From: Catajapyx aquilonaris
Lineage: Eukaryota
Assembly (NCBI GenBank): GCA_000934665.2
Contig: KZ538851.1
Location: 1 to 44,449, forward strand
Direction of reading: 5' to 3'
DNA length: 44,449 nt
Shown here: positions 1,515-34,530 of the stretch, piece by piece
Layout: each line of letters opens with the position of its first letter
Numbering within the stretch: position 1 is the first letter of the stretch
Position numbers and translations under genes: made by a program
Notes under the pieces: generated by a model
The model's database searches: none
Told to the model about the DNA's origin: nothing
Seen by the model: the letters and a program-made list of their open reading frames with translations, nothing else

Positions 1515-4341
1515 TTACACATATTTCTTCAAAAAATTCTGCAAAGAAAGATTAACAATGTGAGTTTCAAAATCATTGTTAGAAGAATATGCTTTACCCA
1601 TGACCCTGAATAGCAGCAGGCAGTGCAGGCCCATATAAAATGACGTTAACCAGGGAGCTGGTGTGTACCCAGGGTAGCAACTTAATAATAATAGTAAGCA
1701 CTTAATAATAATAATGGATACCCCATGATAGGCCACCTTGGGCCTTTTAGGGGATCATCTCTTAATTGACCGCCTTTATTAATTGGCTGTCATGTGATGT
1801 GTTTTGATAGTAGGAGGAAACAGGAGAGCCCCAAGAAAACCCACACGAACACGGAGAAAACCCATCGAAACTCTTTCCACATAAGTGTGATCCAGGGATC
1901 GAACTTGGTTGGGACCTCAGAGGTGGAAGGCTGTGGTGCTCACCACTACACAACCTACTAGCCACTTAATACAATCAGCTCTTGATACAATATACAAAAC
2001 TTGCTTCACTTTTGAGGAATATTTCACGATTCACTCCTTCCTTTGAAAAATATTAGCTGCTTTATTTTTGATGACTATTAAGGGCTGATTGTGTGGAAGT
2101 AGATTGGGAAAATCTCAGAGTATGTGTAGGTATTCCCAGTACGTAATCTGACAAAATCATAGATTTCCTTCTTAATTTTTGCTGATACAACTGGCCCTAA
2201 ACATTTACATTCCCCATAATTTTCTGCTTCTTGAAAAATATTAGACTTCCTCTTATATAACAGGTAAGCTGAAAACAAACTATGTTTTACACTGATATGT
2301 CAGTATAGCCACAAAAGGTTCAATTTCTAAAACCTGGTCATCCATGTTTTTACCTGCACATTGCTATAGATGTGGTTATACCATGAGTAAGTTCTTACCT
2401 TGGCCTTTGAGGTTAGCAAAAAGACAAAGGTTTCAATAAATATGAGCACATAGAGGAAGGAAGTTACCCCAACTCACCTTCTGAAGCAGGGCTATTGAAG
2501 CATGTCGGCAGACATCACCGACATCAAGCATGATATCCAGTGAGTGAGCCACAAAGTCTGAATTCTTCCAATGGTTCCGCTTCTCCATGAGAGCTGCGGT
2601 CCCAAAAAGCAGTATTCCACACACCCCAAAAAACACCATGTATGGGTAGTACTGGAAAAGTATAAAGGACATTTCAGTGTAACAGATGTTTAATTTAGGT
2701 CTAATTATTGATAACTGACCTGATAAAGAAAATTGGCACCAACAAAAATCTTGGCCAGCCTGAAGTCCGCCACCAGTGCCGCAAGGGATACAACAGGACC
2801 TGCAGCCAATACCACCTGACCTTGTGAGGTTAGATACACTATGCCACTGAAGCAAGCCAAAGTAACCCAGGCTATGTGGAAAATCAGTGCTATCAAGTGT
2901 GGTGACGTGGACACTGCAGATTCCACAATGGATCCAACTATTAGCCCTGTAATAAGGCATGATAATAATAATTATCAGGATTTAAGGTTACTGGTAACAG
3001 AGTTATGATTTAATAATGGCATTTTTAGATGAGACTTAGATTTAAGGTCTTTTAAAGCAAATTTTATGGATTTGAAGGTACTGCTCATATACAGCACGTT
3101 TCCCATGACAAAAATTAAATAACGATATCAAACAAATTCATTGCTATACTGTGTAGTAGGCTAGTTATGAATGCAGCTTTTAAAGTCTATCATTGAGCAC
3201 ACAATTATCACCCTGGCAGGGATCATGTAGATTAGGAAAGTGAGGATGTGTTTCACAAATCCCCTGCTTTATCCTTCTAATGAACACAGTGTAGCCATTG
3301 GGTGGAAGTTAATCACTTATCACCAATTTAAACATGACTGATCACTAAAAATAGGACTGACCTTACAAAATGCTGCAACTATAATGGCCCTTACAAGAGC
3401 ACTGTTGGCATGAATAATTTCAATATTGTTTGCAATATTTGAAGGGTCGCCCCGAATAATGTTGTAAGTGACATTGGTTACCATTATTACTTACAACATT
3501 ATTTGGGGCAACCCTTCATTTCTTTACTATTAATTTTGTACCACAATATTTGCAGTTGGTGGTCTAGTGGCTTGCCACTAGCCAGCCAAGCGGGAGGCCG
3601 GGGTTCAAATCCCGTCCCCGTCACCTCTGCTTGGCTAGGTCTTTTTCCGCTTTTCACCCGACATGCCGGGGCAGAATTGCACTCCCTACTCCGCCCAGGG
3701 CCAGGAGAAAAGGGCTGGTGTTTAAAGAATGTCAGAAATGACTACCGCACAGCATCCTCCCTTGGGAACCTCCCCTTCCACCCTAAGAGGGCCTCGGGCC
3801 CTATCACAGGGCATTAAAAAAAAAAAAGATTTGCAGTTCAGATTCTCAGTGACCATTCTCAAACAAATATAGTCCCAGAAGGCCTGTAATTACCAATGCA
3901 GAAGGCAAAGACGAGCAGGAAGATGAGCCTCTCTTTTCGGTTCTGACCCCGTGCATCAACTGTGTTTTTCAATGCAAAATATGACCCCAGTAATCCAACA
4001 ATGGAGAGTCCACTGAATTCAGTCAGCAGTGAAGTGTAGGCACCAAAAGCAGCACTCAGGCTGCACAAGGACAGGCAGCCATACATGCTCCTGAGGTGCG
4101 CTCTCTCTCTTTCCTCCCTAAAAACAAGAAAAACATACAGCCAGTTTTTCATCGGTTCTTATGCTTCCTTTCGCTGGAAACACCCTAATAATATAACAAT
4201 AGTTTGACAAGCTAACAGTGGCACATAAAACCTGCTCATAAAATATTCATGTCCTATTCGAAATAATAAAAAGATAGCATGAGTCACTTACCAGCGTGCA
4301 TTGAATGTAGCCAGCAAACTATCTAGGTTGAGTCCCACCAT
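1515..4341 (-). CDS. Divergent tandem paralogue of Bax inhibitor-1 (TMBIM6-like), about 232 aa, 5 coding exons
   Basis: Exons 4341-4292 (MVGLNLDSLLATFNAR), 4117-3894 (AHLRSMYGCLSLCSLSAAFGAY...RLIFLLVFAFCIG), 2946-2720, 2651-2478 (LMEKRNHWKNSDFVAHSLDIMLD...LLQK) and a probable last exon 1538-1515 (NFLKKYV*, strong polypyrimidine acceptor, KKxx ER-retrieval end). All GT-AG and phase-consistent, 699 nt with no stop. Collinear with the adjacent BI-1 gene. The last exon is the least certain. Confidence 0.82.
1703..1965 (-). mobile_element. tRNA-derived SINE with V-domain-like core (family A, degenerate copy)
   Basis: B-box GTTCGATCC, core TTCTCCGTGTTCGTGTGGGTTTTCTTGGGGCTCTCCTGTTTCCTCC, (ATT)n tail. 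Homologous to the copies at 26088 and 27164. Confidence 0.8.
3558..3828 (+). mobile_element. tRNA-Gly-derived SINE (family B) with poly-A tail and 10-bp target-site duplication
   Basis: A-box TGGTCTAGTGG, tRNA-Gly(GCC)-like GCCAGCCAAGCGGGAGGCCGGGGTTCAAATCCCG, A-run tail. ATTTGCAGTT is duplicated at 3548-3557 and 3829-3838. Confidence 0.85.
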
Positions 4342-5171: not shown

Positions 5172-8100
5172 TTAGTTCCTTCGGTTTTTCTTCTGGTTTT
5201 CCTGAAAGGATAAAACATGCCCATGAGTTTGTAATATCAGCACAGTGAGATCTTTCACATAAGATGCAGGTTTGGCAAATCCCAATTATTTGAACAAATT
5301 TTAACGAATCGACTCTATCACAACAGCACTGAAATAGCCGTAGCATCATAACATTGCAGTTCTCAGTAGCAATCTGTGGCTTAAATAATAATTCAACAAG
5401 TCTCCCCTTTAAAAACTTTTGTGCCACTACATCCTGCACATTAAAAAAATGTCTCTCGCCATCATAATTTTTTATTGCTTTATTTATCTCTTGCGAGCAG
5501 TGTTCATAAAGGGCCCCAACCACCATTAAAACTAGACCAAGTGATTAATTCAGAAAAATGACAGAAATATCCAAAGTACAGTTTATGGAGTCAACAAATG
5601 GACTCAAACACACTCTACAACCATTTATCTGACACAAAACACGAGCTCACTTATCTACAGTGCACATCTCCATTAGTTACCATACCATATTACCTGACAA
5701 ACTGACAGGATGGCCATGTAATGAGATTCACCAGGATATTACCAGAGGATTATCATTTGGGCCAAATATGTGGAGCTATTCCACGATAATAAGTATCTAT
5801 GTCTGACTGACCCATATTAATCATGCAGAATTAAAAAAAATCTCTGCTATAACATTGGTAAAATGGCACCTCTTCTTAACAAATCTACGCAAGGTTCATT
5901 AGCAGAGGAGGGTCCCCTGGTTGTCAGGTATCCTTTTCATCCCTCCTGATTTATTCATAAGCAGGGCAGAATGGCAGGAGTTATTTTTGTGACAATTGTT
6001 CCTTTATAATATTAGTTCGGATATGTCTTGGCCACACAGGTAGCCCGATAATATCCTGGTTTGAGGATGTAGGCAACACCCTATTGCCACTATTGGTGAG
6101 ACAATGTAGTACAATAAACATGTGTTGGGATACTTGATATCAAGATTTCAATTCTACAGGGAAGTCAAAACTGAGACACCATTATATGAGAGTAAGGTGG
6201 ATTTGTATCACGATGCAATGAAATCCAAGCATTTAAACATTCCTGCCATTTAGGCATGAGCCTTGTTCTAGACTTTTGTTAAGGATGTTTTGTTAAGCAA
6301 GAAGCCATGGTGATATTAACTACGTGAATGATCTAATAGAATAATGAAATTTGAAGTTTGGTAACTGCTTGTCCAGGTATTGAAATGGGCCAGCATCCCA
6401 TGAATCCCAAACCAGAATACCAGTTCATTAGCTTAAAATCCCACATTGTTACTGACAAATACACCTCGTCATTAATGACTTCAGAGCTTGCAGATCAATG
6501 AAAGTGAAGTTAGTACTAATTAATTGTGAGTATTTATCGCTTTTAAAGGACATGCGTTATCCGCAAGACACTGACCTTCTGTGAGAGAATTATGAGTATG
6601 CGCCGGAAGACGCCAACAAAGTCGACGAACAAGTCAAGGGAGTGGGCAACAAAGTCCTTGTCTCCACGACGTCTCTTCTCAATAATGAGCTGGGTGTCAA
6701 AGAGGATGAAGCCCAGCATCACAGCCAGGCCCAGGTACAAGTGAAGCTGGTAAAGCATCTGTGAGCCAATAAACAGATTGGCCAGTGCAGCCATGGACAT
6801 GATGGAGAGACCCGAAAGGAGTGGACCACCCAAGAGCAGCATCTGCCCTTGGGAGGCCAGCATCGCTGAGGCGCTGAAGCATACAAACACCACCGAGGTT
6901 GCCAGGAAGGCTGTTGTCACCAGGGTTGGCTCTATCATAATGGACATCTCCAGGAGAGGACCCATACCCAGACCTAGTAATCAAACATAAAAACTGTCAT
7001 AACTTGGAGATTCAGGCAAATTCTTAGAAAACTAACAGGTTATCACTTAACAAGTGCTACAATCCTATAATGAATGATCATATGAATATTACCAACTACT
7101 GTACTGCACCACTAGATCCATTTTTATGAAACCAACTTATTCTCATAAGCGAGTGTCATTTGAATCATCATCTGCAATGAATTGCAGTTTGGACATTTTA
7201 CAACAATAGTAAATGTATTTTGACCTTAGTGTTACAGTTTCATTGGTAAGTAATGTCGTAGTTCGAAAGAAAAATCTTTGATGTACACTTTCAGTGTTCT
7301 TCCACCAGTAGTAGTTCATGTAACAAATAATTGAACCATAAATAGGCTTAGTAGTTTATTGCACCTAAAATGTGTTTGCCAAGTTCCCATTTTGTAGCAA
7401 CTGCACACCTGATCTGCCCTGGCAATTTTAATCATAACATGAACTTAACTCTGGCAGATACGCCTGCCCAGGAAACTGATAATACAAACAAGATACAGGC
7501 CTACTTGTAAAAAAGATAAGTGACACTTGCATGATTTCAAGCTTGTCATGAACTACAGTACTTCCAGCACAGAAATTCATGTGCATAGTGTGGAGAATAA
7601 AATTACTCCAGAAGAACACTGTTCAAATAAGCAGGAAACTATTTTGTGAGTTCAAGATACTGACCAGTACAGAAGGCAAAAGCAAGCAGAAATCCAAGCC
7701 TCTTCTGCCTGTTCTTTCCATTGTCATCTTGAGTGAACAGAAGAGCCATTAAAAATCCTAGTACTCCAATGGTTCCCAGGAGAGGGCTGTTGAAGAAATC
7801 CGTCGAGAGATACAGGTATCCACCCACAGCAGCAGACAGGGCTGACATCGACAGGCAGCCATACACATTTTTCAAGTGACTTCGAACTGGTGCCTCACTG
7901 AAAGTTGTTAAAAATTAGACTTATTTGACATCAACTCAACATGATAAGGAATGAGGCTGCAATTAATGCGAGCTTCAGGGTTGGTTACTTAACAAGACTT
8001 TTACAGTATGGTACTCCTTAATTAGTTCAAGAGGATTGAGGTGGGGGGATGCATTGCCCAATACATCTGCATCATTTAGTTCTACTTCATGTGCTATTCC

Positions 8101-11150: not shown

Positions 11151-11363
11151 ATGCGCGTGGGTGGGTATGCTCTGGTTGCAGTGGCCGCGGTGTGCTTCGC
11201 GGCAGGGTTTGTTGCAGGGTACAAGGGGAAGGAGATGAGGATCGAGTGGCTGAAGAGGAGGAGGGACAGGCTGGCCTCTAAGCTGATCGACACCCAGAGG
11301 CAGATAGACACCTTCACAGGAAAGAGGACCGCCGTCTCGGGTGGGGACCACTACCAGTTGTAG
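11151..11363 (+). CDS. 70-aa single-pass membrane micropeptide, mitoregulin (MTLN/SMIM37)-like
   Basis: MRVGGYALVAVAAVCFAAGFVAGYKGKEMRIEWLKRRRDRLASKLIDTQRQIDTFTGKRTAVSGGDHYQL*. N-terminal hydrophobic helix with GxxxG, then a basic amphipathic helix. Aligns without gaps to the human mitoregulin sequence as recalled (FAxGxxxG ... R...L..R..RL..KL..TQ...D). GC-rich coding-like codon usage. Confidence 0.78.
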   Translation: MRVGGYALVAVAAVCFAAGFVAGYKGKEMRIEWLKRRRDRLASKLIDTQRQIDTFTGKRTAVSGGDHYQL

Positions 11364-11430: not shown

Positions 11431-13236
11431 ATGGGGGACGAAGAGCCACATGTGGATAGCTGCGTGGAAGAGGAGGAGGTGGCCACAGACATTGCAGAAA
11501 AACTGGAGGAAATGCATGTGACAGATCAAGGAGAGGTGTACGATACAAGAAGGTAATGTTGTTGCATCATCATACATTCAGCAGTTGGATTTTGTATTAA
11601 ACTCTTTGTTTTTGTATCTTTATATGCATTCAAAGATTGGCAATAGTTGCCATAATTATCTGATTTGTTTTAAAATTGAGGCAATGTAATTAATATATTA
11701 CCGCAAACCTTAATACTGTAATGTTTCGCCCAGGTATTACATTCCCAGCAACTAATTTTATGCAGTTGGTTACAGTTTGCCCACCGTCACAAGTACGTTA
11801 AGATGGTTGAGGCAGACGTTCCGGAATCAATTCTTCCACCTGGATACACTGGCACCTTGATCGACGTTAAGGTGGGCGGGAAAGGTGGCCCAGACGATCG
11901 TATTTACAACCAACATGAGGAGCTGAGGGACAAGATAGCCCGGGGAAATTGCTTACTGCGATTGCACCATGGAGGCAAGACGTGGACCACATTTCTGGTG
12001 TATGCCCTGAAAAAGTTCACTGGTGGGATGGGCGATGAGGACAATTCATGCAACACTGATGATCAGGTCTGGAGGCGCTACTTTTTGGGAGAGGTTGATG
12101 ATGCTGAGACAATTGTGTGTACCCAGAAGGCAAATGGTGAGGCAGCACATTTCAGTGCATGCAAAGTTGGAGATAAGACACTAATCTGCACAGGATCAAA
12201 AAATGTGCACATGCTCTTGTCGTGTCGGGATGACATTGAGAAGTACAGTGAAGGCCGGTACAACATTGCACGAGTTGTGGCTAAAACTGTTATGGATGTT
12301 ATAGAAGATATTGGAAAGAAGCGTCGCCAGCGCCTGTTGAAGTTTTTGTTGTCAAACCGGTACACTGGTGTATGTGAGGTGCTACAACCAACTCATCAAC
12401 ATGTGGAAAACCTCTCATATCTAACCCAGCCTGAGCTTCGGTTTGTTGCTTGGACCAAACCGTATGTGAGCAATGACAAATCATTTTGTGCAGTTCCTGC
12501 ACATGAAGGAATTGACAAAGCACGTTCATTTGGCCTGAAGACAGTTGATTATAAGATCATACCAGCATACAAGGCAGAAGACGAAATGAACTCCATACGA
12601 AAGCACTATGGGTATGAAGGCAAGGTGTTGTACTTCCTGGATTCACATGATAATGTGCTTGGGCTGGTGAAGAAGAAGACTGCATGGTATGTGTTGTCTA
12701 GAGCCATACGTGAGAAATCCTGCACAGCCTTGGGGAAGAAGGGTGGAGGGAGTGAGGAGTCAGGGAAAAAAGTGAAGAAGAGAGTGAAGGAGATCCAATC
12801 CTGGCTGCAGTTCTCATCAGCCTTTGGCAATGCCTGGGCAGTAAGTAAAAGTTTAACAAGTTTAGCATGTCATATCAAATCATTAAGAGATCCTTAGTAA
12901 TTTCTGGTATTTTTCGAAAAGCTAGGTTGCTCAAAAGTTACTTAGTTCTACTGAGAATCATTGAGCCATGTAAAAATTGTTGCAGAGCATGTGGGATGTT
13001 GGCAAAATAATGTAAAAATTGTTGCAGAGCATGTGGGATGTTGGCAAAATAATGTAAAAATTAATTTCAATCCATGTGTTCAACAGGAGCTTGGTGCTGG
13101 ATATATCAGGTGGCTTCTCAGTCAGAAGAGGCGGAACAAATTTGACGGTGATCCCCGGTCCATGTTTCCAATTCTCTGGGCAAGATACCTGGCGGAAGAA
13201 GACAAGTCTGATAAATTTGATTGGGATATCGCATAA
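11431..13236 (+). CDS. Stand-alone ATP-dependent 5'-3' RNA ligase-like protein (Trl1/Rnl1 adenylyltransferase type), 448 aa, 3 coding exons
   Basis: Exons 11431-11552, 11766-12840 and 13087-13236 (GT-AG, phases 2/0, 1347 nt). Nucleotidyltransferase motifs occur in order: IARG, KKF, motif I KANG (12127-12138), Ia GSKN (SKN at 12196-12204), III GVCE (E at 12376), IV EGKV (12616), V KKK (12670), then WYVLSRAIRE. AATAAA at 13244-13249. The gene model is solid; the function is inferred from motifs. Confidence 0.8.
12968..13062. repeat. 42-bp tandem duplication (about 2.3 copies) in ligase intron 2
   Basis: ATGTAAAAATTGTTGCAGAGCATGTGGGATGTTGGCAAAATA is repeated exactly at 12968 and 13010, with a partial third copy at 13052. 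Confidence 0.95.
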
Positions 13237-15159: not shown

Positions 15160-18100
15160 TCAACAATCGACACCCTTCCCCATCCCGCTCCACCTGTCTG
15201 GCACCAGCAGGAAGTATCGGTCCATCGCTTCGCAGAAGCGGGCTTGGTACATCTCTGGGTCCACTACTGTTGGTAGCTTTCCCTGACCTCCTAGGATGCC
15301 GTAAGTCTTCACAAATTGTTCCAGACGTTTGTCCCATGTGAATGTGCGAATGTAGTCTGCAAATACGAGTAATTTCAATAACTTAGATATTTCTACTTGA
15401 TAAACTACTACAAAATTGAATTACAGCTTCCATGTTACTAGCAAATGTGGCTGTTTATTCCCAAAAAATTCAACTCATGCAATCAGTTTAAAGCAGAGGT
15501 CTCAAACTCAATTTGGTAGAGGGCCACATCTGCTTGGGTGAACTTTAGTAAGGGCCACACTTTTACCAGTGGCGCAATATTCGTACTAAAGCCTAATCGT
15601 GTCAAAGTGTAACTAGAACCTATACTGCAATATACACAACACAGGAACTTAAAAATAAATAGCTGAAGTGCTTGAAAGTTACATGATCAAATTTCATATG
15701 TGACAGTTTGTGTTTTACATTTTGTCTGGAAGTCTGACATCACGTGTATCGGGCAAGTCATTACAGAACCTCATCAGATAATCACGATCTTCTAGGTTCT
15801 CGTTAACATTCATCATTGAAAGTAACTGCTCACACAAGTATGTGTTACCAAACATTGCAAGGTACAGTACTATATCGCTCAAAAACATAAAGAGACAATT
15901 TTGATATATGTTTTTGAGCGATATATTGTAGTACCTCACATCAAATTGTTTCATATTAGGGAATTGCCAGGCAAATAATTATGTGCAAAACTTTGAAATC
16001 CCAACAATCTTTGTAGGTCTACTTGTTCCTGAGAGCAGAGTTTACACTGGATTTCAATGGACTCCATCTGAACCTAATCACTTTCCTGACTGACATCATA
16101 TGAGAATGGAGAAGCAAACAGCTGAAAATCTTTCACACACAATTTGAAAGAATCTCATTTCAAATTCAGTAATTAAAATTGTTTAAAAAAAATAAGCATT
16201 GAAATTAGGTTCAAGTCCTTGTGCACATGACATTTGAGAATCTCAGAAGCATTCCAGATTTCTTCACTGAACCCATGCTGGCATAGCCATGTACCGGCAT
16301 ATAAAGGAATTTGTTCCATCACAAAATTGTCAACTTGTTGGATTAGGGCCATGGGCGCAAATAAGCTGCCTGCGGGCCACACGTTTGAGACCTCTCGTTT
16401 AAAGCAAATCAACAATCACAACAATGTTCCTTCCAACGTTGCTTCCAATATTATAATAGTTGCATCTTTTTAAGTTGGTTGCTAGGACTAACAATTCGCA
16501 AGTTTCCCCCGTTTCCTTCTTGATCTAGGAACAGTTCATTATGCTGTGTACCTTATCTACTAGCAAATTGTAGTGTTTCTGTCCACCACATTGACTTGGT
16601 AAATGTTGTATCATGAATCACCTGATCTATTCAAACATTGTAATGAGACAGTCAAACTGAGGAGAAACTTCTCTAACTACGTGCAAGAACATAACTCCCA
16701 TAATGAATTTAAAATGTGGAAAATGTTACTTTCCATGATCTTGCCACATCATCAATTCATAAAAGTCCATGAACAAAATTGATGGTTGAGAAAACCAGTT
16801 ACCTATGATGCCAACCACCAGTTCCTTGTTATCCTCATCCAACCCAACCAGCAGGGAGTAGTCCATCACCATCTGCGAGGCCAGGAAGGCAGCATCTTTG
16901 TGTAGGGCCATGGAGAGCACCGTCTTAGAATGGGGGCGGATGTACAAAGGAGACTCACAAACCACTATTGAGAGAAGAAAACTGTCATGTAAAGCATATC
17001 CCAAATATGTTCAGGTTAATACATTTTGAGGATCTAAATATAGCCAGCTTACGCTTAAGTAGGTTCTCATCAAGCAATACAAGTTCTCCCTCTTGCTGCT
17101 GCTTCCCCCCAGTGTGCACCATCCTATTGCGCACTGATCCCTTAAGGTCAAATTTCTGGGTAACGTTGCGCCCATAAAATAGGTTCTCCATGATGAGCAC
17201 ATCCATCTTGGAAGCTGCATTAGTGGAACTGTTCTTGAATCCAATACGATACACGCCCAGTATCTTGGCCAGTGCAGTTGTGGAGCCTGCTGTTCCACTT
17301 GCCATGTACTTGAAGTAGTTGGGAGCAAAGTCAACAAAAGACTGAATCTCAAAGCGGGACATCTGCTTCAGGATGAGTCGGTCATCGAATGTCTTGCAGA
17401 AAGTTGACCCTGACTTTCCTCCCCTTGCTGCCCATGGGAAGCACCTCTGAAGAGATCTGTGGGATGATTTGGTGTTTTCAAAGTGAAAAAAGTCTCAAAA
17501 TTTTGTAAGTCTCTCTGAGCATCTTCTGGTACATAGTTGCTTTGCATTCAAGTTAAATGCTCTTTCTTCATGTACACTATAATGATTAATGAGATCCCTG
17601 CACATCCAATACATATCTCTTGCCTACTTACACAATTATTCTTCATTACCAATAATTAGAATTTCAGGTAATGTGATATGACTTATGTACTGATACTGCA
17701 ATCACAATCAACTGCAGTAATGACATCACAAAAAACTGCAGTTGGAGAATGTCTTGATGTTTCACTATATTATCATAATGTATGCCATGATTGTTGGTAT
17801 TAAGAAGTTCAGTTTAGTTTATTTACCTCGGTAGGCTTAATGCCTTTACATGGGGGAGCTCCCCTGAATATTTACATTAATTAAATTCTCTCACTTATTT
17901 ACCTTACATGTGGTTATTTCACTCTTGTAGTAATAAAATATACAGTTTTATTTCGAGGAACATCAAATGAAAACTAGATGGGGGGTATTAAGGAGTAAAA
18001 ACTAACCTGACATAACCCTCTTCTCCCTCTGGAATCAAGCAGCGTCGGCGCATCTGCCGGAACTGTTCTGCATAGTACACCCGGCAGTAGAACTTGGCTG

Positions 18101-21100
18101 TTGGGCAAAGGAATTGCAGTTCTATGTGGTGATCAGGGTTCTTCAATGCAGGGCTGCTGTTCACATTGTTTGAGGCAGGCTGGTTGACAGGATTGCCAGG
18201 AGAGGCTGATGAAGTGTCCGAAACTGGTTCATCCCGGAGGTCAGAATCCCATCCATCTGCTTGTTGTGGAGCCTGTTGTGGTGGGGCATTCAAGAGGTTC
18301 TGCTTTTCACCCCGACGAAAAGATAAGAGAGGCTTGCGGGTTGACTCAGTTGAAGATTCCATTGATGACTGCAGGGAAGACTCCTTGTCTGATGATGATT
18401 TATGGCCCCTGCGCTTTGGAAGTGGACTAATTCCACTCTCCTTGCCCTGCCCACCCCCTCCAACAACACTTCCTATTGCTGCTGTGTTGGCCAGAATTTG
18501 TGCTTGAATATCATGAAGCTGCCTCTCATAGTCAGCTGAGCACAGGGCAAATGCAATAATGGAGGTGGGTTCACCCTCATACACCACTACTGGCACTGTT
18601 GTGGTTGGAAGATAAATATAATGCTCCCCAGCATCTAAAGGGCAGGTGAGTGGTCCAGATGGAGCAGTAGACAGCAACTGGGTCAGCAATGTCTTCACCC
18701 CTCCTTGCATTCTTCTCTCTTGCTGGCCTATCCTTGAGTCACCAGCATCCTCTATTTTGCACTGTTGCAGACGGCCATCTCCGTCTGAATGTGATCGCTC
18801 ATGGCCACGGGCAGGAGACCCTGAAGAGTGTCGGCTGCGGGAAGGGGCCACCAAAACTGACTCAGTCTCTGGCTCACTGTTGGGGACACTGTCATCGCTT
18901 ATGACAGGATCACTCTCCACTCGTGGTATTGACAAAGGAGGATAACTGGCCATCCTGGCACGTTTCTGCTCAGGGGTGCCAATGGGAGGCAGGGGATCGG
19001 ATTCTGGTTCATCAGTGGTAGTCTGAAAATATGGAATGATGGTAATGAAACTGCTTTCATACTTATACGGATAAACAAATAAATAAATAAACATAACTAG
19101 GACTGTTACCTATTACATCTCATTTATATCACTTATTTGTGTTGCATTATTATCACTAGGGGCTGGTTGCAAGAAGAATCATGAAACATCTGCAATTTAT
19201 TATGTATATTCACAATACATAATCCGACATTATTGGAGATTTCCTCCATAATTTGTGTTGAACAACAGGCCATCAGTGAGTACGTTTACATGGGACTAAA
19301 AATCGGCCTGACCCAGGCTTCCTAAGCAAGGCCATCATCGCCTTAGGTAGACCACCCGATCCAAAAGGCCTGGGCTGCGCCCGACAACGGATCAGTGAGG
19401 CCGGTCTATCATAGGCCCAGCGGCTACATGGGAGTAAACCGCCTAGCATAGGCTAGGCCAATTTTTAGTCCCATGTAAACGCACTCAGTGTCCATTATAC
19501 AATCTATTCACAATCACAGTAAGAATGTGGATTATGTAATAATCATATTTTACCTCAATGTTAATTATTGCTATCTAGAAATCTAATTATATCCACCACA
19601 ATTTATGGAAGAGCTCAGGAGCCATACTGCTGCTGAATTAATACAACAGGAAATGGTGATTCCATTTACAGCAGAGACTTTATGCTGATTTTCATTTGCA
19701 ACTGTTTTTTGCTCTTCAGTCATGAACATTAAAAACTGATTACTCTGCTGGAATCAGTGATTTTTAACAAATCATATGTGGCCTTGGGATTTGATTTGAC
19801 ACCAATGCCACTTGCAGTGAAGCTAATCTAAAAATGAAACAGCCCCTAATTAATCTACTATGGTTAGTCATATGAAAATGAGGCTTACGTATTATCAAGA
19901 ATATCAGATTTTACATACTCTTAAATTACAAATATCCAATTCATTTGACTTATGTATGGTAAGAGAGAAACAACAGTAGCCTAAGTAGATACATACATTC
20001 TCAGAATTGGGAATGGCAGTTGCAAAGACCTGAGACTTGGATGCGGTCCTTCCTTGCTTCTCTTCTCTTCTTCGCTGTAAGGACAGATCCTGGATATGCA
20101 TGTTCCAGTTGCATACAGCATCAGATATCATGTACCGGAGCTGCACAGCACAGTCTCCGATGTCCCACATCGCTTCCTGGAAGTCTGTCAAGCCGCGTCC
20201 AGAGCGATAGCAGGGAGAAGCAAGAGATGGAGAAAATGGTTGCGGGCAAGTTTCTGGGGGAAGATCATTGCCACTGGGTCGACAAGAACCTTTCTCCTGG
20301 GAGCCACTACTGTGATGGTGGTTGCGTTCCTGTGACACTGCTGGGGAAGTCAGTCTCATCTGCATCTCCTCTATCTTAGACCGGAACATAGCATGTTCAC
20401 CCTGGAGCTGGTCCAATAGTGCCGCTGAAAAAATGTTTGTTGCAAGCAACTCCTCAAATATTTACTGTAACTTAATACTGAACTCCCCTTAAAACCACTT
20501 GCACATTTTTAGTACTACATGTTTCACACACAAAAATGACATACCAATATACTTTTTATCCTGTGCATCCTCCTTGAGGTTGTGCAACCTCTCCTGAATT
20601 GCTCCAAATATTTCCACTCCCTTAACAGACAAGTCCCTCATCTCTACTGTCAGACTTTCCTTCGAGGCAGGATCTGATCTGAAGCTTATCGTGCAGGGTG
20701 GCAGGTTCACCTCCCATGTTGATATAGGAGAATATCTGTAAAAATATTGCAGGTGTTGTAGTGTCACATAAAAATAAATTTAAAAATACATTATGTTACA
20801 ATAAAACCAAAAATGAAGTGCATCTTAAGACTTTCAGAGTTTGCTATAATATTGACAGTACAGTAAATAATGAACTAGTTACTTTACGTACTTGAATGCA
20901 GCAACTATGTTCTTTTGCAGGAAGTATTGATAGTGCTCATAGTGCAAGGAATGTGGGCAGGAGAATTCAGCATCAGGAGCTGTTCTCCTGGTGTAGATTC
21001 CACCATGGAACCTCAGCTCTAAGTACTTGGCAAAAGACAAGGACCAGGCATCAATTGACAGTGGCAAGATAGGTGACACTTGAGCACATTGCCGGCACCA

Positions 21101-24100
21101 ACTCCAAGTCAGGATAGTTTCTCCTTGTGTGGCCACTCCTTCTAGGGATTTCATTGCAATGTGCACACATCCCCCATCATGAACAAAACGGCGCACATGG
21201 TTCAGCATTGGGGTGTCGCATGAAGCTGATGGACAAGCATATGATGGGCGGAAGCAAAACCGTTCCAGAAAGCAGCCTAAGGGAATGTCATTACGACCAT
21301 ACAGATCCATAGTGACAACCCAGGGGTTCACACAGAAGTATGGTGCATTTGGTGACACAGGGGAGTAACTGCAAAACAACACAGAGAAGCGCTGATGGTT
21401 CAATGGATCCAGAGCATCCACACGTCCATCCCATTTGCTCTCAGATGTTTTTGTGGTCGTGGCAACAACTCCATGATTTTCATGCTGGCTCAGCCGACCA
21501 CCTCTTGCTCGAAAATCTGCCAGCATGGCCTGTATCTCTGATGCATAGACAGGTATATTAAGTTGTGCTGACAAGAACTGGTGTGGTGGATTCATACGTG
21601 TGATGTAATTATTTTTTCCAACTGGCACACCAGGTAAAGCATTGTTGTCTGCTCTAGGTATTCTGCATTGCTCTTTCCCAAGGAACTGCTCTGACCAATA
21701 TATCTCTGCAGGTAGGTACTGACGTAGAACACAGCGCTTCCCAGCATCTGTCTCCAAATAAGGTACACTGTACTTAACATATGGAGAGATGCTGAGGGCA
21801 GTATCATCTAGAGCACGTCGAAAGCGATTTTCTGAAGGAAGTTCTGCCACACGTAGTGAAAGAGCAGCACCTGATGAAAGCATATCCTCCTGTGCTTGGT
21901 CACCCTGGAGGTACTGGTGAAGTGGGTCTGAGAAATCACTGACCTCCAGCATCTCACCCTTCTTCTCTGCTGCAGACACTGTGCAGTGTTGAGGAAGTTC
22001 TTAAACACAGAGCAATAAATTAACCATAATATCACGAAACATTTTCCACATTTGATAAACATGCCTCAAATGGTAAATTTTTGTTAGTTGATGTTACAAG
22101 TTTGTAAAGAAATGTCTTGAGATATCAAGAAGCTCACCTGCTGGTGTTGCTGATGTCATTTGTACCTTGGCATCAACTGGTGAGTTCTCTGCTGGCTCCT
22201 CATCAAATAATGTATCACCACTGGGAGGAGGCATTGCACACTCATCCATGAGAAATGACCTCTCTAACCGCCAATTATATGCAACAAATGTAAGAAAAGA
22301 GACTGCCCTCTTGACCTTCTGCAGTTCAGAGGTACTAGCCCCTCTCAATAACACGGTGCATCCTAAGTGGGCCGCACACCCCTCAAAAAACATAAGTGTC
22401 TTGGTCTTTCCTCCCCCAAGGTCAAACCCTTTCACAGAGAAGCGGTGGCACATTCCCAGCCTTGGGATCCCAACATGCGCGTCCAAGGAGGGAAGGACAT
22501 CTGCCTGGGTGCAACGGGACACCCTTTCCATGACACTGGCCTTTACATTCAGCACAAGGGTAACCCCATGCTCTCGCAAGTTATCTTGGGCAATTCGAGA
22601 CACTGTCTTCTCCACTAACAGGAGATCTGGCTTTAGGGCTAGTATGCGAGAGACAGCATTTTTCAAGTAGTCAGGTTCCTGAAATGGTAAATAGTTGTTA
22701 TTTTTCAAAAAGGAATATTGAATATATTTTTTGCATGTGTCATCTGGTTTATGATGAAGATCACACTGAGGCCTACTATACTTATACTTAGTCACAATAA
22801 AGACATCATGCTTCATAGTCGAGAACTTTTCATTTGCACGGCAGTGTATTTTGTGTTGGTGCAAACCAACAGATGAATGTGTTACAATGACAGGTAATGT
22901 CAGTGTGGTGAGTAAGATGCAGTATGATTGTGAGTAATAGTGACTCAAGTGGCAAGTCATGTACTGTACAGTGTGAGTTGAGAGAATGAGCTTAGTAGTT
23001 CCCAGCACATTCTACGACTGCAGTCTCAGCGATGAGGTAATGAAGAAATATAAGCAGGTCCACAGAGATAATGAAGAGGAAGATGGGTGAGTAAGTAAAA
23101 AGAGATGGATGGGGACAGCCAGTGAATTTGTGTGTCAAGATGGCAACAAGAGGACATCTCGGAAGGGATAAGGAAAGAAGGCAGTTGCAAGTACAGCCAG
23201 TGAGACACATTGAATAGTAGAGATAATATTGGGTTACAATAGATCAGACCACAGTCCTATAGAAGAAGGGTTTATAAAAAAGCCTCCAAAGCACCCTTGC
23301 CTCCATAATAATGCAGAGAGTGCCTCTAACTCAGTGGGGTCGGCCAAGACACACAACTCCCTAACCTTCATAACCCTAGTACTTCTCCTTACATCATCCC
23401 TGCTAATGTCATGCTACATTACTCTCTGGGAGCTAGTATTTCACAGTTGAAAGAAAATGAACTTAAATGAACAAGTGTGAAACTATACTTTAAATATGTA
23501 AATAGTTGTACAGTGAAATGAAAACAAAACCAGAAGACAGTACCGTAAGAGAGGGTTATTTCATCACAAGGAAAGGAAAAGTTTTTCTCAGACTACCATT
23601 AATTCAACAATCCACTAGCATCGATTTCATGATAGTGGACATTTGATACAGCAGATAGAAGCAAAAAAGCAGATGTGCCACATTTGTTGAGCTTCAACAG
23701 CAATTTGAAAATTGATGACAAATCGCTTCAAAAAAGCGAGCTGTAAACTTTCCAATCTGTACTAACAAAAGGTGCGCCTGAAGAATGAAATTATCATGTA
23801 CACATAAATTATTTGGTGTGCTGAGTCCTCTCTTACGGTAATAAAAAGTAACTACTCCACAGGCTAAATAATCAATTCACAGAACAATAGTGTTGTCCGA
23901 TTGACACTGCACCGGCTACACTCGGTGTAGGGAGGTGACGTCACAGTGCAGCGAGTGTGACCCAGCACTGGGGCCTCGAATCGGACACCTCCAGTGCAAC
24001 CCAAGATGGCCGACAGCAGGATTTCCACAGGATCGTGCACAGGATCGTGGGCACCTTGGCGGTTTGACCTTTTTTAGCTCTTTATAACGACGAGCAATTA

Positions 24101-27100
24101 ATACTTGCACGCTAGGGGACACGGTGGTCTAGTGGCCAGTCCAGGGGCTACTGGCCAGCCAAGCGTAAGGTCCCAGGTTCAAATCACCCTCCATCCGCCG
24201 CCATCTTGCCAGCCCGTCTTCGCGCCTTACACCGCCTGCCCCACCTTCTCCACTGGTGCAGCGAGTGCAGCCCCCCGCTTGCACTGGTGCAGTTACACTG
24301 GCGAATCGGACACGCTGCTCCCGGTGAATCGGACGCTTTTTCCTGCACGAGTGTACACTGGCTACACCAGTGCAATCAATCGGACAACACTAATACTTAT
24401 TGCATCAGACAATGAAAGTGCAGATTTTTTGGAAGTTGATGTAACTGACCTGCATCCAGAGGGGCTCCAGAGAGAGAAACTTTCCCTCCATCCTCTGATA
24501 TATAATAGACGAACTGAGAAGAAGCACCTGGGGGTTTACTAGATTGGCAGGCATTGACCGATGGGCCACATTTTTGGAGCACACCACCCCATTTACTATG
24601 CATGACTCGGCACGTTCACCACCTGGGACTTTCTTTATTTGAACATATCTGCAAAAAGTAATAAAATGTTATGCATATACACAAACTGTTCATGCCCAAC
24701 AATAATGAGTAACTTACTGTTGGATGTCCATATCATCATTGTTGCATTTGACATCAGGCTTGACATGTTCAACAATGCAGTGGACCAAGGGAAGAATCAC
24801 ATCAGCCCATGAAGGAGCCAATCCTTCTTTTGTCAGCATTTGCATCAGAAGTGTCTTTTCATGACTCAGGTAAGCTTCACTACATAATTTCAAAAATCAA
24901 TTATATTACAATACAAAACAACATGTGAGTACGTGTGTGGTACTACTGACCAATGAATAGATAAAACATGTGCTTTACTAGAAGAACGCTTGTATGACCC
25001 TTCTGCAAACCAGGATCATTGGGAGAACAAATTAGTAATTCAGTAACATGACATTGCCTCAATAGGTTTTTCTTAGCGCTGTTTTGGAAACAGCATCTTA
25101 TTTTTGTGTAAGTTCTGAGGGAGCTGTTAATCCCTTTGGCCCCTGGCCTTATCTTAATTAGAGGCAACTTGGACATAGCTAATATTTCTTAATTTGGTCA
25201 ATTATTTGCAAATAAACATTTTCAAATTTCCATATTTGGCAGCACTTCAAAATCTCACAATATCAATGACCTATGCTTATGTGTCAAATTTTCCCTGGTA
25301 TTTTCCTCAATTTGATTATGAACACTTCTTATTTTCTACATTTATTGGTCAATACTTCTGCACCATTACCCAACACATGCAATCAAAAAGTTCATGTTAT
25401 ACAAATCATCCTACCTGAGGCGTTCAAGGGCAACCTTCTCCCCAGTTTCTGCCCTCAAATGTTGTGCAGGAGACCATCCAGTTGGGGCAACAAATTCTCT
25501 ATTCCCCTGCATATGGGTGAAGAGTGTTTCCTTCAAGAAGTCCTCAGATATTTCAGTGCTGGACAAGTCCATTTCCAGCATTGGATATTGTGGCAGCTTA
25601 CCTAGAAAGACATTATGTAGATTGCACATCACTCTTGATGTCACAAAGGAGAAACATTACTTTGGCCTAGACCCATTGAACTGAACAGGATTTTCATAAA
25701 TATGCATGAGGTGATCAAATGGGAGCACCACAGTGAACAAATTTTGGCTCTGAAGTATGGTGCTGAATGGCAAAGGGCACTAAATGACATGGTGAAAGTG
25801 GCGTTAAGAGAAAGCTTTTCACCCTCTGGTCACGCTTTTCACCTGTGCATTCAACCCTACAAAGCAAAACAACTGACCATGACAATCCTTAAAATCTGCC
25901 TTATTTACCTTTACCTTGAGTTCAAACAATGGAGCAGAGGACCAAATTCGACTAAATTTCAAGCCATCAGCAAAACTATTATGTCATCCTAAAAGGCAAC
26001 AAGTCTATGAAACTGTGCTGAGAAATGCTGAATATGGTACATTGAAACCTAAATAAAGTGGAAGCAATGCTTTCAGTGATATGAAAGCTCTTTAGGGGAT
26101 CATCTTTTTAATTAACCGACTTTAAGCATTGCCTTTGCTGTGATGGATTTTGAAAGTGGGAGGAAATGGGAGAACCCTGAGAAAACCCACGTGAACACGG
26201 AGAGAACCCATGGAAACTCTATCCACGTAAGTATCCTCTCAGGATCTTAGAGGTGGATGCTAATCACTCCGCCACCGTGTTGCCATGATATGCAAGCATT
26301 ACAGCTGGTCACATTTTGAATTTGACTTGTATTGCACATCTAAATGTGTAACTTATCTGAGTAACTCTTAAAAATTACATCGAACTTACCAAATGTGATT
26401 GAGTTGTCTCTCCTGCTTCTTTCCTCTTCACTGTTCTTCGATTCCAGCTTAGCTTTTGACACAGACACTGTACTATCTTCGACATTGAGCTCCAAATAAA
26501 ACATAGAACCAGCAGAAGAAAGGTGCCCAGAACCCTGCCTGAAGGGCCGCTTTTTTTCTTCTTTGGCCACATCGTCAGACTCAGAATCTGAGAAGCAACA
26601 CACATGTAAAGCTCGATTAACACACCACATGCTCAAAAAAGTCTCATGCATATTATTGGTGCTTCTTCGAAGCAAGTTGTAGGAATTCTTATCAAGGAAC
26701 AGGGCAGAGGTTACATTTATGATATAATCAGGGCAAACAGGAGACATCAACCCCAGACAGGGAGGTATGTGGGAGTCTAAAAAACATGGGGAAAATGATT
26801 CATCTCTAGTTAGAGGCCTAATTTTGATTTGCCTTCTCCCTCAACACCGGAACAAATTCAACAAATTTACTTGGCCTATAGCATTTGAGACATGAATAGT
26901 TTGGCATCACAGATGTGGTGGAAGTGGGGGATAGGTATGTGGCATAATGTGGCAATGGTACAGTGTTGGACATTAATCGAGGCATTTGAGGCACTGGTGG
27001 CTAGTGACATTTTCCGAATCGGCAAAAGAAGGAATTGAAGATAAGGATACTGCAAGCCGGGCGAGCAAGATTCCTTCCTCTGCCGCTTCGGAAAGTGTCG

Positions 27101-30100
27101 CTAGCAGTATGCCTCGAATTATGTCCAACACTGTACCATTTTACAACTGCATGAATGTTGCATATAATGGATACCCTGTGATAGGCCTCCTTGGGCCTCT
27201 TAGGGGATCATCTTTTCGTGAACCATCTTTAATCATTGCAGCTGCACTGTGATGGATTTTGATTGTGGGAGGAAACAGGAGAACCCCGAGAAAACCCACG
27301 CGAACACGGAGAGAACCCATTGAAACTCTATCCACATAAGTATCCTCTGTCTGACCCGGGGATCGAACTCGGGACCTCAGAGGTGGAAGGCTGCGGCGCT
27401 AACCACTGCGCCACCATGTCGCCCTGCCATGAATATTGCATATAAAACTGGAAGGAAATTATAACTACTTCACTTTGCTAATCCCCATGTTATTTTCTTG
27501 TATTTGCTTGTATCGCTTGCAATCATGCAAAGTTTGATTTCACAAACTTAAGAGTGCTGTAGTCTTACAAGAGGAACTTCACTGATGATTTGATATTCTA
27601 ACCAAGTAGGTTCAGTGTTGGACGTTAACTGAGGCACACGGCTAGCAACATTTTCCGAAGCAGCAGAAGAAGGAATCGAAGATAAGGATACTGCAAGCCG
27701 GGCGAGCAAGATTCCTTCTCCTGCCACTTCGGAAAATGACGATTTTGCATTGAAACCAAATGCAAAATCGCCTATCTCTTTGAGCAATATTGTAGTACAG
27801 TGTTGGACATCAATCAAGGACATTAATCAATTAATGTCCAACACTGTATTACAATATCGCTCAAAAAGATAGATGATTTTGCATTTGGTTCCAATGCAAA
27901 ATCGTCTCCATCTTTTTGAGCATTATAGTACAGTACATATCTCCCTATAAAAGTTAATTATGCCAAGTTAGAGAAGCGTAAACAGGAGAGGGGGGGGGGG
28001 GGGGNNGAGAGAGAGAGAGAACTTTAACAAAGAGTTCTCACTGACAGTGAGTGGTAACAACTTTTAAATCACAATCCTGATGGAGGCATTTGTAATGTAC
28101 GAGCATTGCACTTCCCTTCACCACATTGACCCGCCAAGGACGTGCCCTCTACTTGCCGGAGCGTAGGAAGCCTTACCCTCAGACCTATTACCGATTTACC
28201 CATTAATTAACCTATGCCATTTACACTATCCAAACAAACAACCTTAGCCTCAGCCACATGGCAATGAATGATATCAGTTGGCACTTTTACAATGGTGGGA
28301 TATCGACAACAACAAAACTACTTATGATTATTTAAAACACAAAAAAAATCCAATAGTTACTAACCTATAAAAAGTTCATCTTGCATTCCAATTTGTTTCA
28401 GCCATAAGGGTTCATGGGCCTCTGGAGCAAACTCCCTCCTTTGCAAATCCACACAACTGTTAGATGAGGCAGCACTATCCTCCTGAGAAGTGGTGAATGC
28501 CTCTTGAGGGCGGTATAACATGTATCCATCCACAAAGTCTTGCTCACCATGAGAAATGCACTCCAGGAAACCAGCATCAATCAAGACTTGCCCTATCTTT
28601 GTAGCTTGTGCTCTGGGAAACAGGACATGACAAATATTACTGCCATTAAATCTGCTGATGCACCAAAAATCTCACTCACTAAACATAGCAAAGTCTTAAA
28701 ATTAACCTTGGAGGTTAAATCTAACACTACCATACCCTGCATTAAAACCACTGAAAGCAGGAATTAGAAAGTTTAGAGCATAATAATCATTACCTTGTGG
28801 AGGCCTTCCCCTGAGAAATGAGCCAGTCCACAAGTTCTGCACCCACAAAGCAGGACTGGAAAGTTCTGAGTCTGTGTCGATGGCTCTGCAAAGTTACTCC
28901 TGTGATGGGTTTGCACATCTCTATCATAAGAGAGCGGAGATGGACACAATCCTGCAGAAGGGTTTTGCGCTCCACAGGACTCAGCTCATCAATTGGATCC
29001 TGCTTGGAAAGGTAAACATCTGGCTCATGGCCTTTGCTGAAAGAGATGGAAAGAGGAAGCAATTGATACTGAGAGTGCTGGCAGACCACGAAATACTGCA
29101 GTTGTACTCATGCCACTCATTCAATCATTACTACTGAGGCGCTGACCATGTTGGTAAAAGGCTGAGAATCCAATTCCCACTAACAACCAATCCTTACAAA
29201 AAAATAATTTTCTTTCTACTTACTCCTGAATAAGTGAATAATGCCTTTCCTTTTTGTGAAGTTATTCATAAGAGTACTACATCAGCAGTTCTCAACCGGT
29301 GGGGCATGCCCCCCCCCCCCCCCCCCCCCNNNNNNNNNNNNNNNNNNNNNNNNNNNNNNNNNNNNNNNNNNNNNNNNNNNNNNNNNNNNNNNNNNNNNNN
29401 NNNNNNNNNNNNNNNNNNNNNNNNNNNNNNNNNNNNNNNNNNNNNNNNNNNNNNNNNNNNNNNGGGGGGGGGGGGGGGGGCAATGTGGCATAGGTTGAGA
29501 ACTGCTGTACTACATACTGCAGTGCAAGCTAGTGAAGATTCAATCACAAGTGGGTGCAGAGTTTGGTCTGCTTTCTGGGGTTTTTCAGCCCACTGAGAAT
29601 GGCTAGAAATGTAGAAGAGGGCTGGAAAAACCCAGAAAGCTTCAAAAACTTTGCTTGGGCCAACTATAAGATGATGCACAGTTACAGCACAGTAGAGTAG
29701 CTTGAAACTGTAGTACCACACCACAGTGCAATTGACAGGGTTGTGCAATATTACTTCTGACCTGTCTATTTCCATCTATGGGAGGTAGGTAAGTGAGGAT
29801 CAGCTGTTATCCACACCAACGTGTGCAACCCCACTTTTTTGCCAGGTCTGACACCATTAGACAAGTATAGATCAAATGGTAAGATTAAGTCATATGGTTT
29901 TTTAAAAATCCACCATTATGGATATCACATGATGATCATAATGATAGACATTTGTGGACTCATAGGGTTCGTACACATCACACAATTTGTTGATTGATAG
30001 AGTGTAAGTGGGACAATAGCAGATTCATATGATACTGATGACATCAGGCATATTGTCAATAGGTTGAGTGTAAGTGGGACAATAGCAGATTCATATGAAT

Positions 30101-33838: not shown

Positions 33839-34530
33839 GTCTGCCGTGTGACCAAATGTGACTTTCTAGTACTCAGCAACATACGGAAGCCTCCTTCCCT
33901 GTAAATCCAAGAGTGTAACAGCTGAGGTCTGACCAGCTGGACCCTGCGTTTCGAACTAAATGTGATATGTAGGCTATTCAATATACCAAGTGCAGCCCTT
34001 CTCTCATGTAGTGGCCCGAGTTGTCCGCAGCAGGAGCATCTCGTGACATTCCCTCGAGAGCCATTTCCATTGCCCCCTTCATCACAGCTCCTTCCGGGCT
34101 GCTATCTGCTGCTATCGTCCTATGGAAATTGGGACACGGCCCATCATGCACAGATTAACCACCAGCCTCACAAGTACCACGTAGGCACCAACTGATATTA
34201 TTTTATAATTATCACAATGTAAAAATAAAAAACCCCAAAATTATCTCCATAAAACTGTCGCGCCCAATGCGCATCTAGTGTCGAATCCGGTCGAATCGCA
34301 TAATCCCCAAGAAGTGTGCATTTCCCTCGTTAGATGGCGGACGGATCGAGAGCCACCCGCCTTGAACAGAGTTCCCGCCAATGGTCCCCTTCCCTCGAGT
34401 TGCCATTGGCGCGAAGCACGTGTTGTCGGGACCATTGGCGGCGCCCATCCACCCCGTCCACCCACCCAACCCAGCCTCTCTCGCTCCGTCTCTGGGCATC
34501 TCGGCGCCAGTATCCAGTCTGTCGCCGGAC
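33839..34530. promoter_or_regulatory. Bidirectional promoter/5' UTR region between PIKfyve and the membrane-protein gene
   Basis: About 690 bp between opposed ATGs, CpG-rich. YY1/Pho-like AGATGGCGG at 34332-34340 and several CCAAT/ATTGG boxes (about 34264, 34378, 34405, 34434). Confidence 0.6.

Follow-up and report, generated by a model that had tools for sequence, protein, structure and literature searches.

Trl1-type ligases are the textbook enzymes of fungi and plants, and the joining of tRNA and XBP1 exons in animals is ascribed to RtcB in textbooks and recent papers, where the lancelet is treated as a curiosity. Here, a gene on the forward strand of contig KZ538851.1 of Catajapyx aquilonaris (GenBank assembly GCA_000934665.2, positions 11431-13236) was analyzed within the whole stretch of 44,449 nucleotides (nt), termed the window. 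With good confidence, it is assigned as the gene of a 5'-phosphate RNA ligase that is ATP-dependent, stands alone, and is of the Trl1 ligase-domain (Trl1-LIG, Rnl6) type; the enzyme is probably 2'-phosphate dependent and is placed in the Pfam family DUF7920.

Two described systems are of particular relevance to this locus. BfRNL of Branchiostoma floridae has been reported as a stand-alone 3'-OH,2'-PO4/5'-PO4 ligase, which complements the yeast trl1 deletion in the company of a kinase-cyclic phosphodiesterase (CPD) module (PMC10946426), and it was described as weakly similar to the yeast and plant tRNA ligases, with its healing enzymes being separately encoded (PMC3400036, PMC4090602, PMC10946426). 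The fungal LIG, the founder of the Rnl6 clade, is constructed by an adenylyltransferase domain and a unique five-helix C-terminal module, which covers residues 328-406 in the Chaetomium enzyme (PMC11404444), and the KxNG tetrapeptide is reported as motif I of Trl1-LIG (PMC10946426). In the Chaetomium LIG, H227, R334, and R337 hold a sulfate mimicking the 2'-PO4 and enforce the 2'-PO4 requirement, and their replacement by alanine slowed RNA adenylylation 60- to 420-fold; in the fungal enzymes this histidine is located nine residues after the motif III glutamate (+9), and the two arginines just past the motif V lysines (PMC11404444).

The predicted fold of the window protein was obtained by AlphaFold2 from window positions 11734-12840 together with the family alignment, an input whose first 10 residues are translated intron and in which the last 49 residues are missing. 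The resulting model reached a mean predicted local distance difference test score (pLDDT) of 91.4 and a predicted template modeling score (pTM) of 0.89. When it was compared with the Protein Data Bank (PDB) by Foldseek, the top ranks were occupied by fungal Trl1 ligase domains (9qw7, 6n0t, 8rbj, 6n67, 9r3w, and 6n0v; E 4e-11 to 3e-9; template modeling score about 0.6), followed by T4 Rnl1 (E 2e-9 to 7e-9) and then by archaeal Rnl3, Naegleria Rnl5, T4 Rnl2, and DNA ligases. Pairwise superposition with VIA-align placed residues 5-367 of the model on chain residues 37-407 of 6n67 (Z 24.2, root-mean-square deviation 3.4 Å over 298 residues), while the superposition on T4 Rnl1 gave Z 20.4-20.8 over 247-253 residues and covered only chain residues 0-278. 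Moreover, a springtail homologue (P0003, 432 residues, 48% identical), which was folded in its full length with pLDDT 92.7 and pTM 0.91, displayed five helices past the motif V strand (residues 325-340, 349-367, 371-390, 399-416, and 418-429). Its model was matched to Trl1-LIG over 337-347 residues and up to chain residue 406-412 (Z 24.9-26.5), the highest value being found for 6n0t (residues 35-406, Z 26.5), and to T4 Rnl1 with Z 19.4-19.7 over 248-272 residues. All alignments to T4 Rnl1 (2c5u, 5tt6, and 9do4) ended at chain residue 252-287 of 367-375, which appears to leave its C-terminal domain unmatched. The predicted models thus combine the adenylyltransferase fold with the five-helix C-terminal module of Trl1-LIG (Rnl6), and the third exon of the window gene aligns without gaps to the C-terminus of P0003. 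A fungal and plant-type ligase had been proposed in a preliminary description of the sequence, and this proposal agrees with the predicted fold, which is that of a nucleotidyltransferase and lies nearest to the fungal Trl1-LIG, ahead of T4 Rnl1. As to the human ligase family RLIG1/C12orf29, neither such a Pfam family among the matches nor such a chain among the structural matches listed was encountered.

The catalytic residues were examined in an alignment of 34 family members, for which the full-length numbering of the window protein is used. There are 35 invariant columns, and every motif residue is found among them: R100-G101, K124-F125-x-G127, K162-x-N164-G165, G184-S-K-N-V-H189, E245, H253, E325-G326-x-V328, K343, K345, W348-Y349, R353, and R356-E-K. 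The hallmarks of a covalent nucleotidyltransferase and ATP-dependent RNA ligase, namely the KxNG motif, the motif III glutamate, the EG of motif IV, and the KxK of motif V, are therefore present in all members of the alignment (34/34), and K162 is predicted as the site of covalent adenylylation. The motif series that had been read from the letters (ARG, KKF, KANG, SKN, VCE...QHV, EGKV, KKK, and WYVLSRAIRE) was found in one frame and in that order, and the two arginine codons assigned to 12700 and 12709 proved to be those of R353 and R356.

At the level of families, the second exon (355 residues, P0001) was matched to Pfam DUF7920 (PF25536) over residues 111-311 with 32.9 bits (E 4.8e-8), and the stop-to-stop open reading frame (ORF) of the ligase with 32.5 bits, both above the curated cut-off of 27 bits. 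A search of 5.8 billion proteins retrieved 124 homologues at E <= 0.001 (best E 2.8e-107); the best ones are 430-500 residues long and 44-49% identical over the whole exon 2 query, with the top one showing 48% over 100%. A profile search of 1.84 billion representatives gave 1708 clusters at E <= 0.001, including 336 at E <= 1e-30. The homologues are derived from springtails (Folsomia, Allacma, and Orchesella), barnacles, copepods, decapods, krill, and an ostracod among the arthropods, from molluscs, nemerteans, an annelid, a bryozoan, hemichordates, Branchiostoma, a tardigrade, and a rotifer among other animals, and from oomycetes, a chytrid, and the heterolobosean Acrasis outside the animals. 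No insect, vertebrate, nematode, or chelicerate was seen among the 120 matches listed of the 124, which is weak evidence of their absence. Nearly all homologues carry only the names 'uncharacterized' or 'DUF7920 domain-containing'. The term 'DUF7920' did not occur in any paper of the literature searched, the retrieved passages of papers naming both Trl1 and Branchiostoma held no mention of an arthropod or mollusc member, and the literature searches returned no biochemistry of any arthropod DUF7920 member. The match goes well beyond chance, as judged from the Pfam score above the cut-off, the 124 homologues, and the 35 invariant columns. The ligase gene is genuine, but others like it exist, since enzymes of this type are distributed in many invertebrate phyla.

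The window protein carries the ligase portion alone, in accordance with the ligase-only product claimed before. Its 448 residues contain no Walker A sequence (G.{4}GK[ST], 0 matches), the two H.[TS] tripeptides at residues 29 and 169 are not in a 2H-like setting, no kinase or CPD match was found in the ligase by Pfam, and the stop codon lies at the usual C-terminus of the family. Nor was any match to the kinase/CPD, Tpt1, Clp1, or RtcB families detected among the 286 six-frame ORFs of at least 55 residues in the window. Fused domains were sought in 16 long proteins, of which 12 came from the 150 best profile matches and four from a longer-length search. In P0350 (732 residues), DUF7920 is followed by the Pfam domain tRNA_lig_kinase (35.2 bits, cut-off 22.7) and then by two HxT motifs, and P0398 showed a sub-threshold match to tRNA_lig_CPD. 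By motif scan, P0398 and P0401 present the order of ligase, P-loop, and two HxT motifs, which is the order of Trl1, while the P-loop and HxT precede the ligase in P0384, P0380, and P0402; an N-terminal AAA_33 kinase-like domain was recognized in P0384 and P0402. The R..RE signature is kept in P0350, P0398, P0401, P0384, and P0380, and is replaced by RALRQK at the same place in P0402. By these fusions, the DUF7920 ligase is functionally tied to the Trl1-type healing modules.

Other domain combinations also occur in the family. A further 24 longer relatives (638-724 residues) had no precomputed kinase or CPD domain, and two of them were annotated with a B3/4 domain. DUF7920 ligases of 495-700 residues with this domain, which is folded like the beta subunit of phenylalanyl-tRNA synthetase, are exemplified by P0264, P0266, and P0112, the domain being sub-threshold in our own scan (26.9 bits vs 29.3). 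In addition, DUF7920 is joined to a Methyltransf_16 lysine methyltransferase in P0302 and P0319, and to HAM1_N in P0291. Such added domains may be genuine accessories or the product of fused gene models.

The dependence on 2'-phosphate is suggested by a His-Arg-Arg set, with the histidine near motif III and two arginines, three residues apart, past motif V, all invariant in the family. In the window protein, H253 is located eight residues after E245 (+8), and R353 and R356 lie at +8 and +11 from K345. The two arginines are the seventh and tenth residues of the first helix of the C-terminal domain (model helix 317-334), as are R334 and R337 when counted from residue 328 of the Chaetomium enzyme. 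The RxxR pair past motif V, to which the preliminary description had drawn attention, thus sits, together with the histidine adjoining motif III, where the fungal triad is reported to sit (PMC11404444). On the basis of position and conservation, and with a shift of one residue, H253, R353, and R356 are candidates for the equivalents of the fungal triad, and it appears rather probable that the window ligase would depend on 2'-phosphate.

Several observations weigh against the assignment to Trl1-LIG and against the triad. Identity to Trl1-LIG amounts to only 16-18% when the structures are aligned. No RNA ligase was found when the PDB sequences were searched by HMMER, either with the protein by itself or with the profile of the family, and the matches returned, such as a pertussis-like toxin subunit (E 0.48) and designed tetratricopeptide repeat proteins, were due to chance, so the link to Trl1 rests on the fold comparison and the motifs. 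The second exon also matched Pfam RNA_lig_T4_1 (PF09511) in the region overlapping DUF7920, with 18.4 bits and E 0.002, below the cut-off of 28.3 bits; the relative P0401 passes this family with 30 bits on the same region. Furthermore, the spacing of the triad is one residue shorter than in the fungi, the distance from glutamate to histidine being +8 rather than +9. In yeast, where we take K284 and K286 to be motif V, the distances from lysine to the arginines would be +9 and +12, compared with +8 and +11 here.

A rival reading is a T4 Rnl1-like repair ligase, which would seal simple 3'-OH/5'-PO4 breaks, such as those of tRNA anticodon loops, with no need for a 2'-phosphate; in that case, no step by Tpt1 and no pathway of the Trl1 type would be implied. 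Such an enzyme would accord with the off-by-one spacing of the triad, with RNA_lig_T4_1 as the sole sequence-level match to a named ligase family, and with T4 Rnl1 as the second-best structural match of both models. Nevertheless, it is considered unlikely: Rnl1 is matched to residue 252-287 of 375 only, whereas Trl1-LIG is matched to its end at 406-407; H253, R353, and R356 are invariant in 34/34 and 38/38 sequences; kinase and 2H modules of the Trl1 type are found fused to the ligase in relatives; and BfRNL has been reported to use the 2'-PO4 end (PMC10946426).

For a ligase of the Trl1-LIG type, the following course of sealing can be proposed. K162 of motif I would attack ATP to form ligase-AMP, from which AMP would be transferred to the 5'-PO4 RNA end, and the 3'-OH of the other RNA end would then attack the AppRNA, giving the sealed product. 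The helical C-terminal domain with R353 and R356, along with H253, would probably bind the terminal 2'-PO4. The ends to be sealed would be 3'-OH,2'-PO4/5'-PO4 ends made by a separately encoded kinase and cyclic phosphodiesterase, and the 2'-phosphate at the junction would subsequently be removed by Tpt1. We infer the enzymatic activity of the window ligase, its partner enzymes, and its substrates, which could be tRNA halves, XBP1-type mRNA, or damaged RNA. The earlier suggestion of an active sealing-only ligase, possibly 2'-phosphate dependent, is consistent with the predicted fold, the invariant motifs, the ligase-only product, and the placement of the candidate triad.

The gene itself was resolved into three exons, whose spliced frame of 1347 nt encodes 448 residues with no internal stop. 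It had been given as a single span; the start codon at 11431 and the stop codon at 13234-13236 are retained, but the span is interrupted by two introns. Similarly, the protein was stated to end about 95 residues past RAIRE, and it does end soon after, the actual distance being 91 residues. The first exon encodes an acidic N-terminus and ends with the donor AAG/GTAATG in phase 2 (slashes denote splice junctions). Alignment to the homologues showed it to be poorly conserved, as is the N-terminus across the whole family, and because homologue identity there is low, it was called from the ORF, from its splice signals, and from the requirement of an ATG upstream. The acceptor tttatgcag/T (11766) is the one among four examined candidates to restore the frame, and it gives ...YDTR-S-WLQFAHRHKYVK, in which S41-W-L-Q-F-A fits the conserved xWLxWA helix of the family. 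The ligase motifs are held in a stop-to-stop frame of 391 codons (11722-12897), and the second exon ends at 12840 with the donor GCA/GTAAGT. The acceptor ttcaacag/GAG at 13087 opens the third exon, and an AATAAA poly(A) signal is found at 13244, past the stop. This second junction falls within a conserved motif, where twelve homologues are aligned with no gap (NAWA/ELGAGYIRWLL vs xWxxLGxxFxxW), and the C-terminus is 0-4 residues from the ends of all seven arthropod homologues in that alignment.

An inactive relic, either a pseudoenzyme or an unexpressed gene, would be in keeping with the poor conservation of the first exon and with a search in which no RNA sequencing run containing the locus was encountered, one run of unstated kind sharing 0.68 of the words sampled. 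It is regarded as very improbable, since no stop interrupts the spliced frame of 1347 nt, the introns follow the canonical GT-AG rule, the start codon lies in a favorable context, and a poly(A) signal is present; in addition, every invariant residue of the family is kept, and the C-terminus is co-linear with the homologues. The predicted ligase gene is intact, as judged from the open frame, the introns, and the invariant residues.

The descent of the ligase was investigated in a tree of the window protein and 49 family members, which were chosen for named, diverse origin from the 120 matches listed. The window protein was recovered as sister to the springtails, with a Shimodaira-Hasegawa approximate likelihood-ratio test (SH-aLRT) support of 90, within a larger group made up of barnacles, copepods, decapods, and krill, which received 93 under LG+C20 and 97 under LG+G4, the query N-terminus being slightly wrong in the LG+G4 tree. 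Deuterostomes and molluscs clustered as the species do, and the ostracod stood outside on a long branch. One exon of the neighboring PIKfyve gene is nearest to insect proteins (cockroach 53%, compared with snail 50%, tick 49%, and scorpion 47%), and this exon, along with the pancrustacean clade, makes the arthropod host that had been proposed plausible. Because the tree pattern follows the species groups, vertical descent in the arthropod lineage is favored over contamination or recent transfer and is the best reading of the sequences. Foreign DNA, that is, a protist or fungal contaminant or a recent horizontal transfer, is regarded as very improbable. In its favor are the members from oomycetes, a chytrid, and a heterolobosean and the textbook place of Trl1-type ligases in fungi and plants. 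Against it, the gene contains spliceosomal introns and has a G+C content unremarkable against the rest of the window, it is flanked by a Bax-inhibitor gene, a mitoregulin ORF, and an insect-like PIKfyve gene, its product groups with springtails inside the crustacean clade, and the deuterostome, mollusc, and arthropod sequences each cluster as species do.

The coordinates of the ligase gene, its motifs, and the annotated neighbors are compiled in the table.

Table. Positions of the ligase gene, its motifs, and neighboring genes in the 44,449-nt window.
Feature	Coordinates	Strand	Remarks
Ligase gene, exon 1	11431..11552	+	ATG at 11431, context agtaatATGG; 40 codons + 2 nt
Ligase gene, intron 1	11553..11765	+	213 nt, GT...AG
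Ligase gene, exon 2	11766..12840	+	Adenylyltransferase domain and first half of the C-terminal domain (predicted); all catalytic motifs
Motif I, K162-A-N-G	12127..12138	+	K, N, and G invariant (34/34); K162 codon 12127-12129
Motif III, E245 with H253	12376..12402	+	E245 codon 12376-12378; H253 codon 12400-12402; both invariant
Motif IV, E325-G326-K-V	12616..12627	+	E, G, and V invariant
Motif V, K343-K-K345	12670..12678	+	First and third lysines invariant
R353-A-I-R356	12700..12711	+	Both arginines invariant in 34/34 and 38/38 aligned sequences
Ligase gene, intron 2	12841..13086	+	246 nt, GTAAGT...AACAG
Ligase gene, exon 3	13087..13236	+	Last 49 residues of the predicted helical C-terminal domain; stop TAA 13234-13236
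PIKfyve, FYVE domain	30989-31225	-	Pfam
PIKfyve, DEP domain	28363-29107	-	Pfam
PIKfyve, Cpn60_TCP1 domain	22097-23011, 24408-24668	-	Pfam
PIKfyve, PIP5K domain	15163-17494	-	Pfam
Bax inhibitor-1 exons (Bax1-I)	3862-4158, 6546-6980, 7642-7914	-	Pfam

Within the second intron of the ligase gene, a 42-bp tandem duplication was noticed at 12968-13062 (+; 2.3 copies, 100% match). Upstream on the same strand, an ORF of 70 codons at 11151-11363 (ATG 11151, stop 11361-11363) was matched to Pfam Mitoregulin (MTLN; 48.3 bits, cut-off 27, E 9e-13), and in the ESM Atlas the cluster nearest to it (score 0.89) is a family of mitoregulins that includes molluscs. The ORF ends 67 nt ahead of the ligase ATG, and because no AATAAA is seen in this gap, the two may share a transcript, with the micropeptide as an upstream ORF, or the genes may overlap. 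A role of this ORF as a conserved partner of the ligase is unsupported: the best tblastn hit of the mitoregulin peptide against 78 metagenome loci encoding ligase relatives had E 0.066, and MTLN was absent from 148 ORFs scanned upstream of ligase relatives (0/148, out of 223 candidates) in metagenome loci.

The PIKfyve/Fab1 gene extends across 16 kb or more of the reverse strand (about 15163-31225) and includes two N gaps of the assembly, at 28005-28006 and 29330-29463. Bax1-I is represented twice: an N-terminal part at 7642-7914 is accompanied by a C-terminal part at 6546-6980, and a weaker second N-terminal part lies at 3862-4158, which may belong to a tandem duplicate or a decayed copy. An ORF at 2436-2981 (-), possibly a further Bax1-I piece, contains a similar FVAHSLD stretch and has no Pfam match. 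Finally, a G+C-rich kilobase at 34209-35268 (0.53 vs about 0.40 elsewhere) holds long open frames on both strands, with 300 codons on the forward one, and gave no Pfam match.

Taken by itself, the window yields an ordinary annotation, a further case of a known type of enzyme, most probably that of BfRNL, and its modest interest lies mainly in a family still annotated as a domain of unknown function. DUF7920 may represent the animal and protist branch of the Trl1-type ligases, occurring in ligase-only, ligase-kinase-CPD, and kinase-CPD-ligase forms, and a yeast-like heal-and-seal pathway may be ancestral to animals; it may still operate alongside RtcB in this arthropod and in many other invertebrates across the phyla, and may have been lost, for instance, in insects and vertebrates; we hold the case for this broader proposal to be evenly balanced. 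If it were true, Tpt1, which is conserved in animals, would retain its classical role in such species. The window gene and its homologues show that a predicted sealing enzyme of the Trl1 type has been retained by arthropods, molluscs, annelids, nemerteans, and hemichordates, among others. DUF7920, by which name or as 'uncharacterized protein' databases label the homologues, thereby gains a concrete and testable function, a rationale is offered for animal Tpt1 and the CNPase-like kinases, and tractable invertebrates are indicated for studying the division of labor between two ligation pathways.

Among the known systems, T4 RNA ligase 1 (2c5u, 5tt6, and 9do4), which is reported to have no 2'-phosphate requirement, resembles the window protein in the fold of the adenylyltransferase domain (Z about 20) and in the relation to Pfam RNA_lig_T4_1, and appears to differ from it in the C-terminal domain, to which the alignments of the DUF7920 models do not extend. 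Trifunctional Trl1 and plant RNL unite ligase, kinase, and 2H phosphodiesterase in one chain, which is not the case for the window protein. The tRNA ligases of Mucorales are likewise reported as natural stand-alone LIG enzymes with a conserved arginine pair and with healing enzymes encoded elsewhere (PMC10946426; PMC10680797), but they are described as closely related to yeast Trl1, with 49-55% similarity to the Trl1 ligase domain (PMC10680797), and arose by loss within fungi, whereas the window protein belongs to the separate family DUF7920.

The fungal Trl1 LIG (Chaetomium thermophilum 6n0t, 6n67, and 8rbj; Candida glabrata 9qw7) is the best whole-length structural match of the predicted models, the five-helix C-terminal domain included, and shares with the window protein KxNG, the EG of motif IV, the KxK of motif V, and His-Arg-Arg in equivalent places; the window protein is distinguished from it by the lack of a fused kinase and CPD, by the low identity, and by the shifted spacing of the triad. 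In the case of BfRNL, the comparison relies on the Branchiostoma DUF7920 protein, which is 47% identical to the window protein over 97% of exon 2 and whose cluster consists of Branchiostoma members (8/8, including XP_002604648.1) named uncharacterized or DUF7920. This protein is most probably BfRNL, whose description it fits, the match being one of description and not of accession. BfRNL and the window protein are both ligase-only animal polypeptides, the window protein and the Branchiostoma DUF7920 protein share one tree, and the difference lies in the host of the window protein, which is arthropod-like, with springtails as its nearest relatives.

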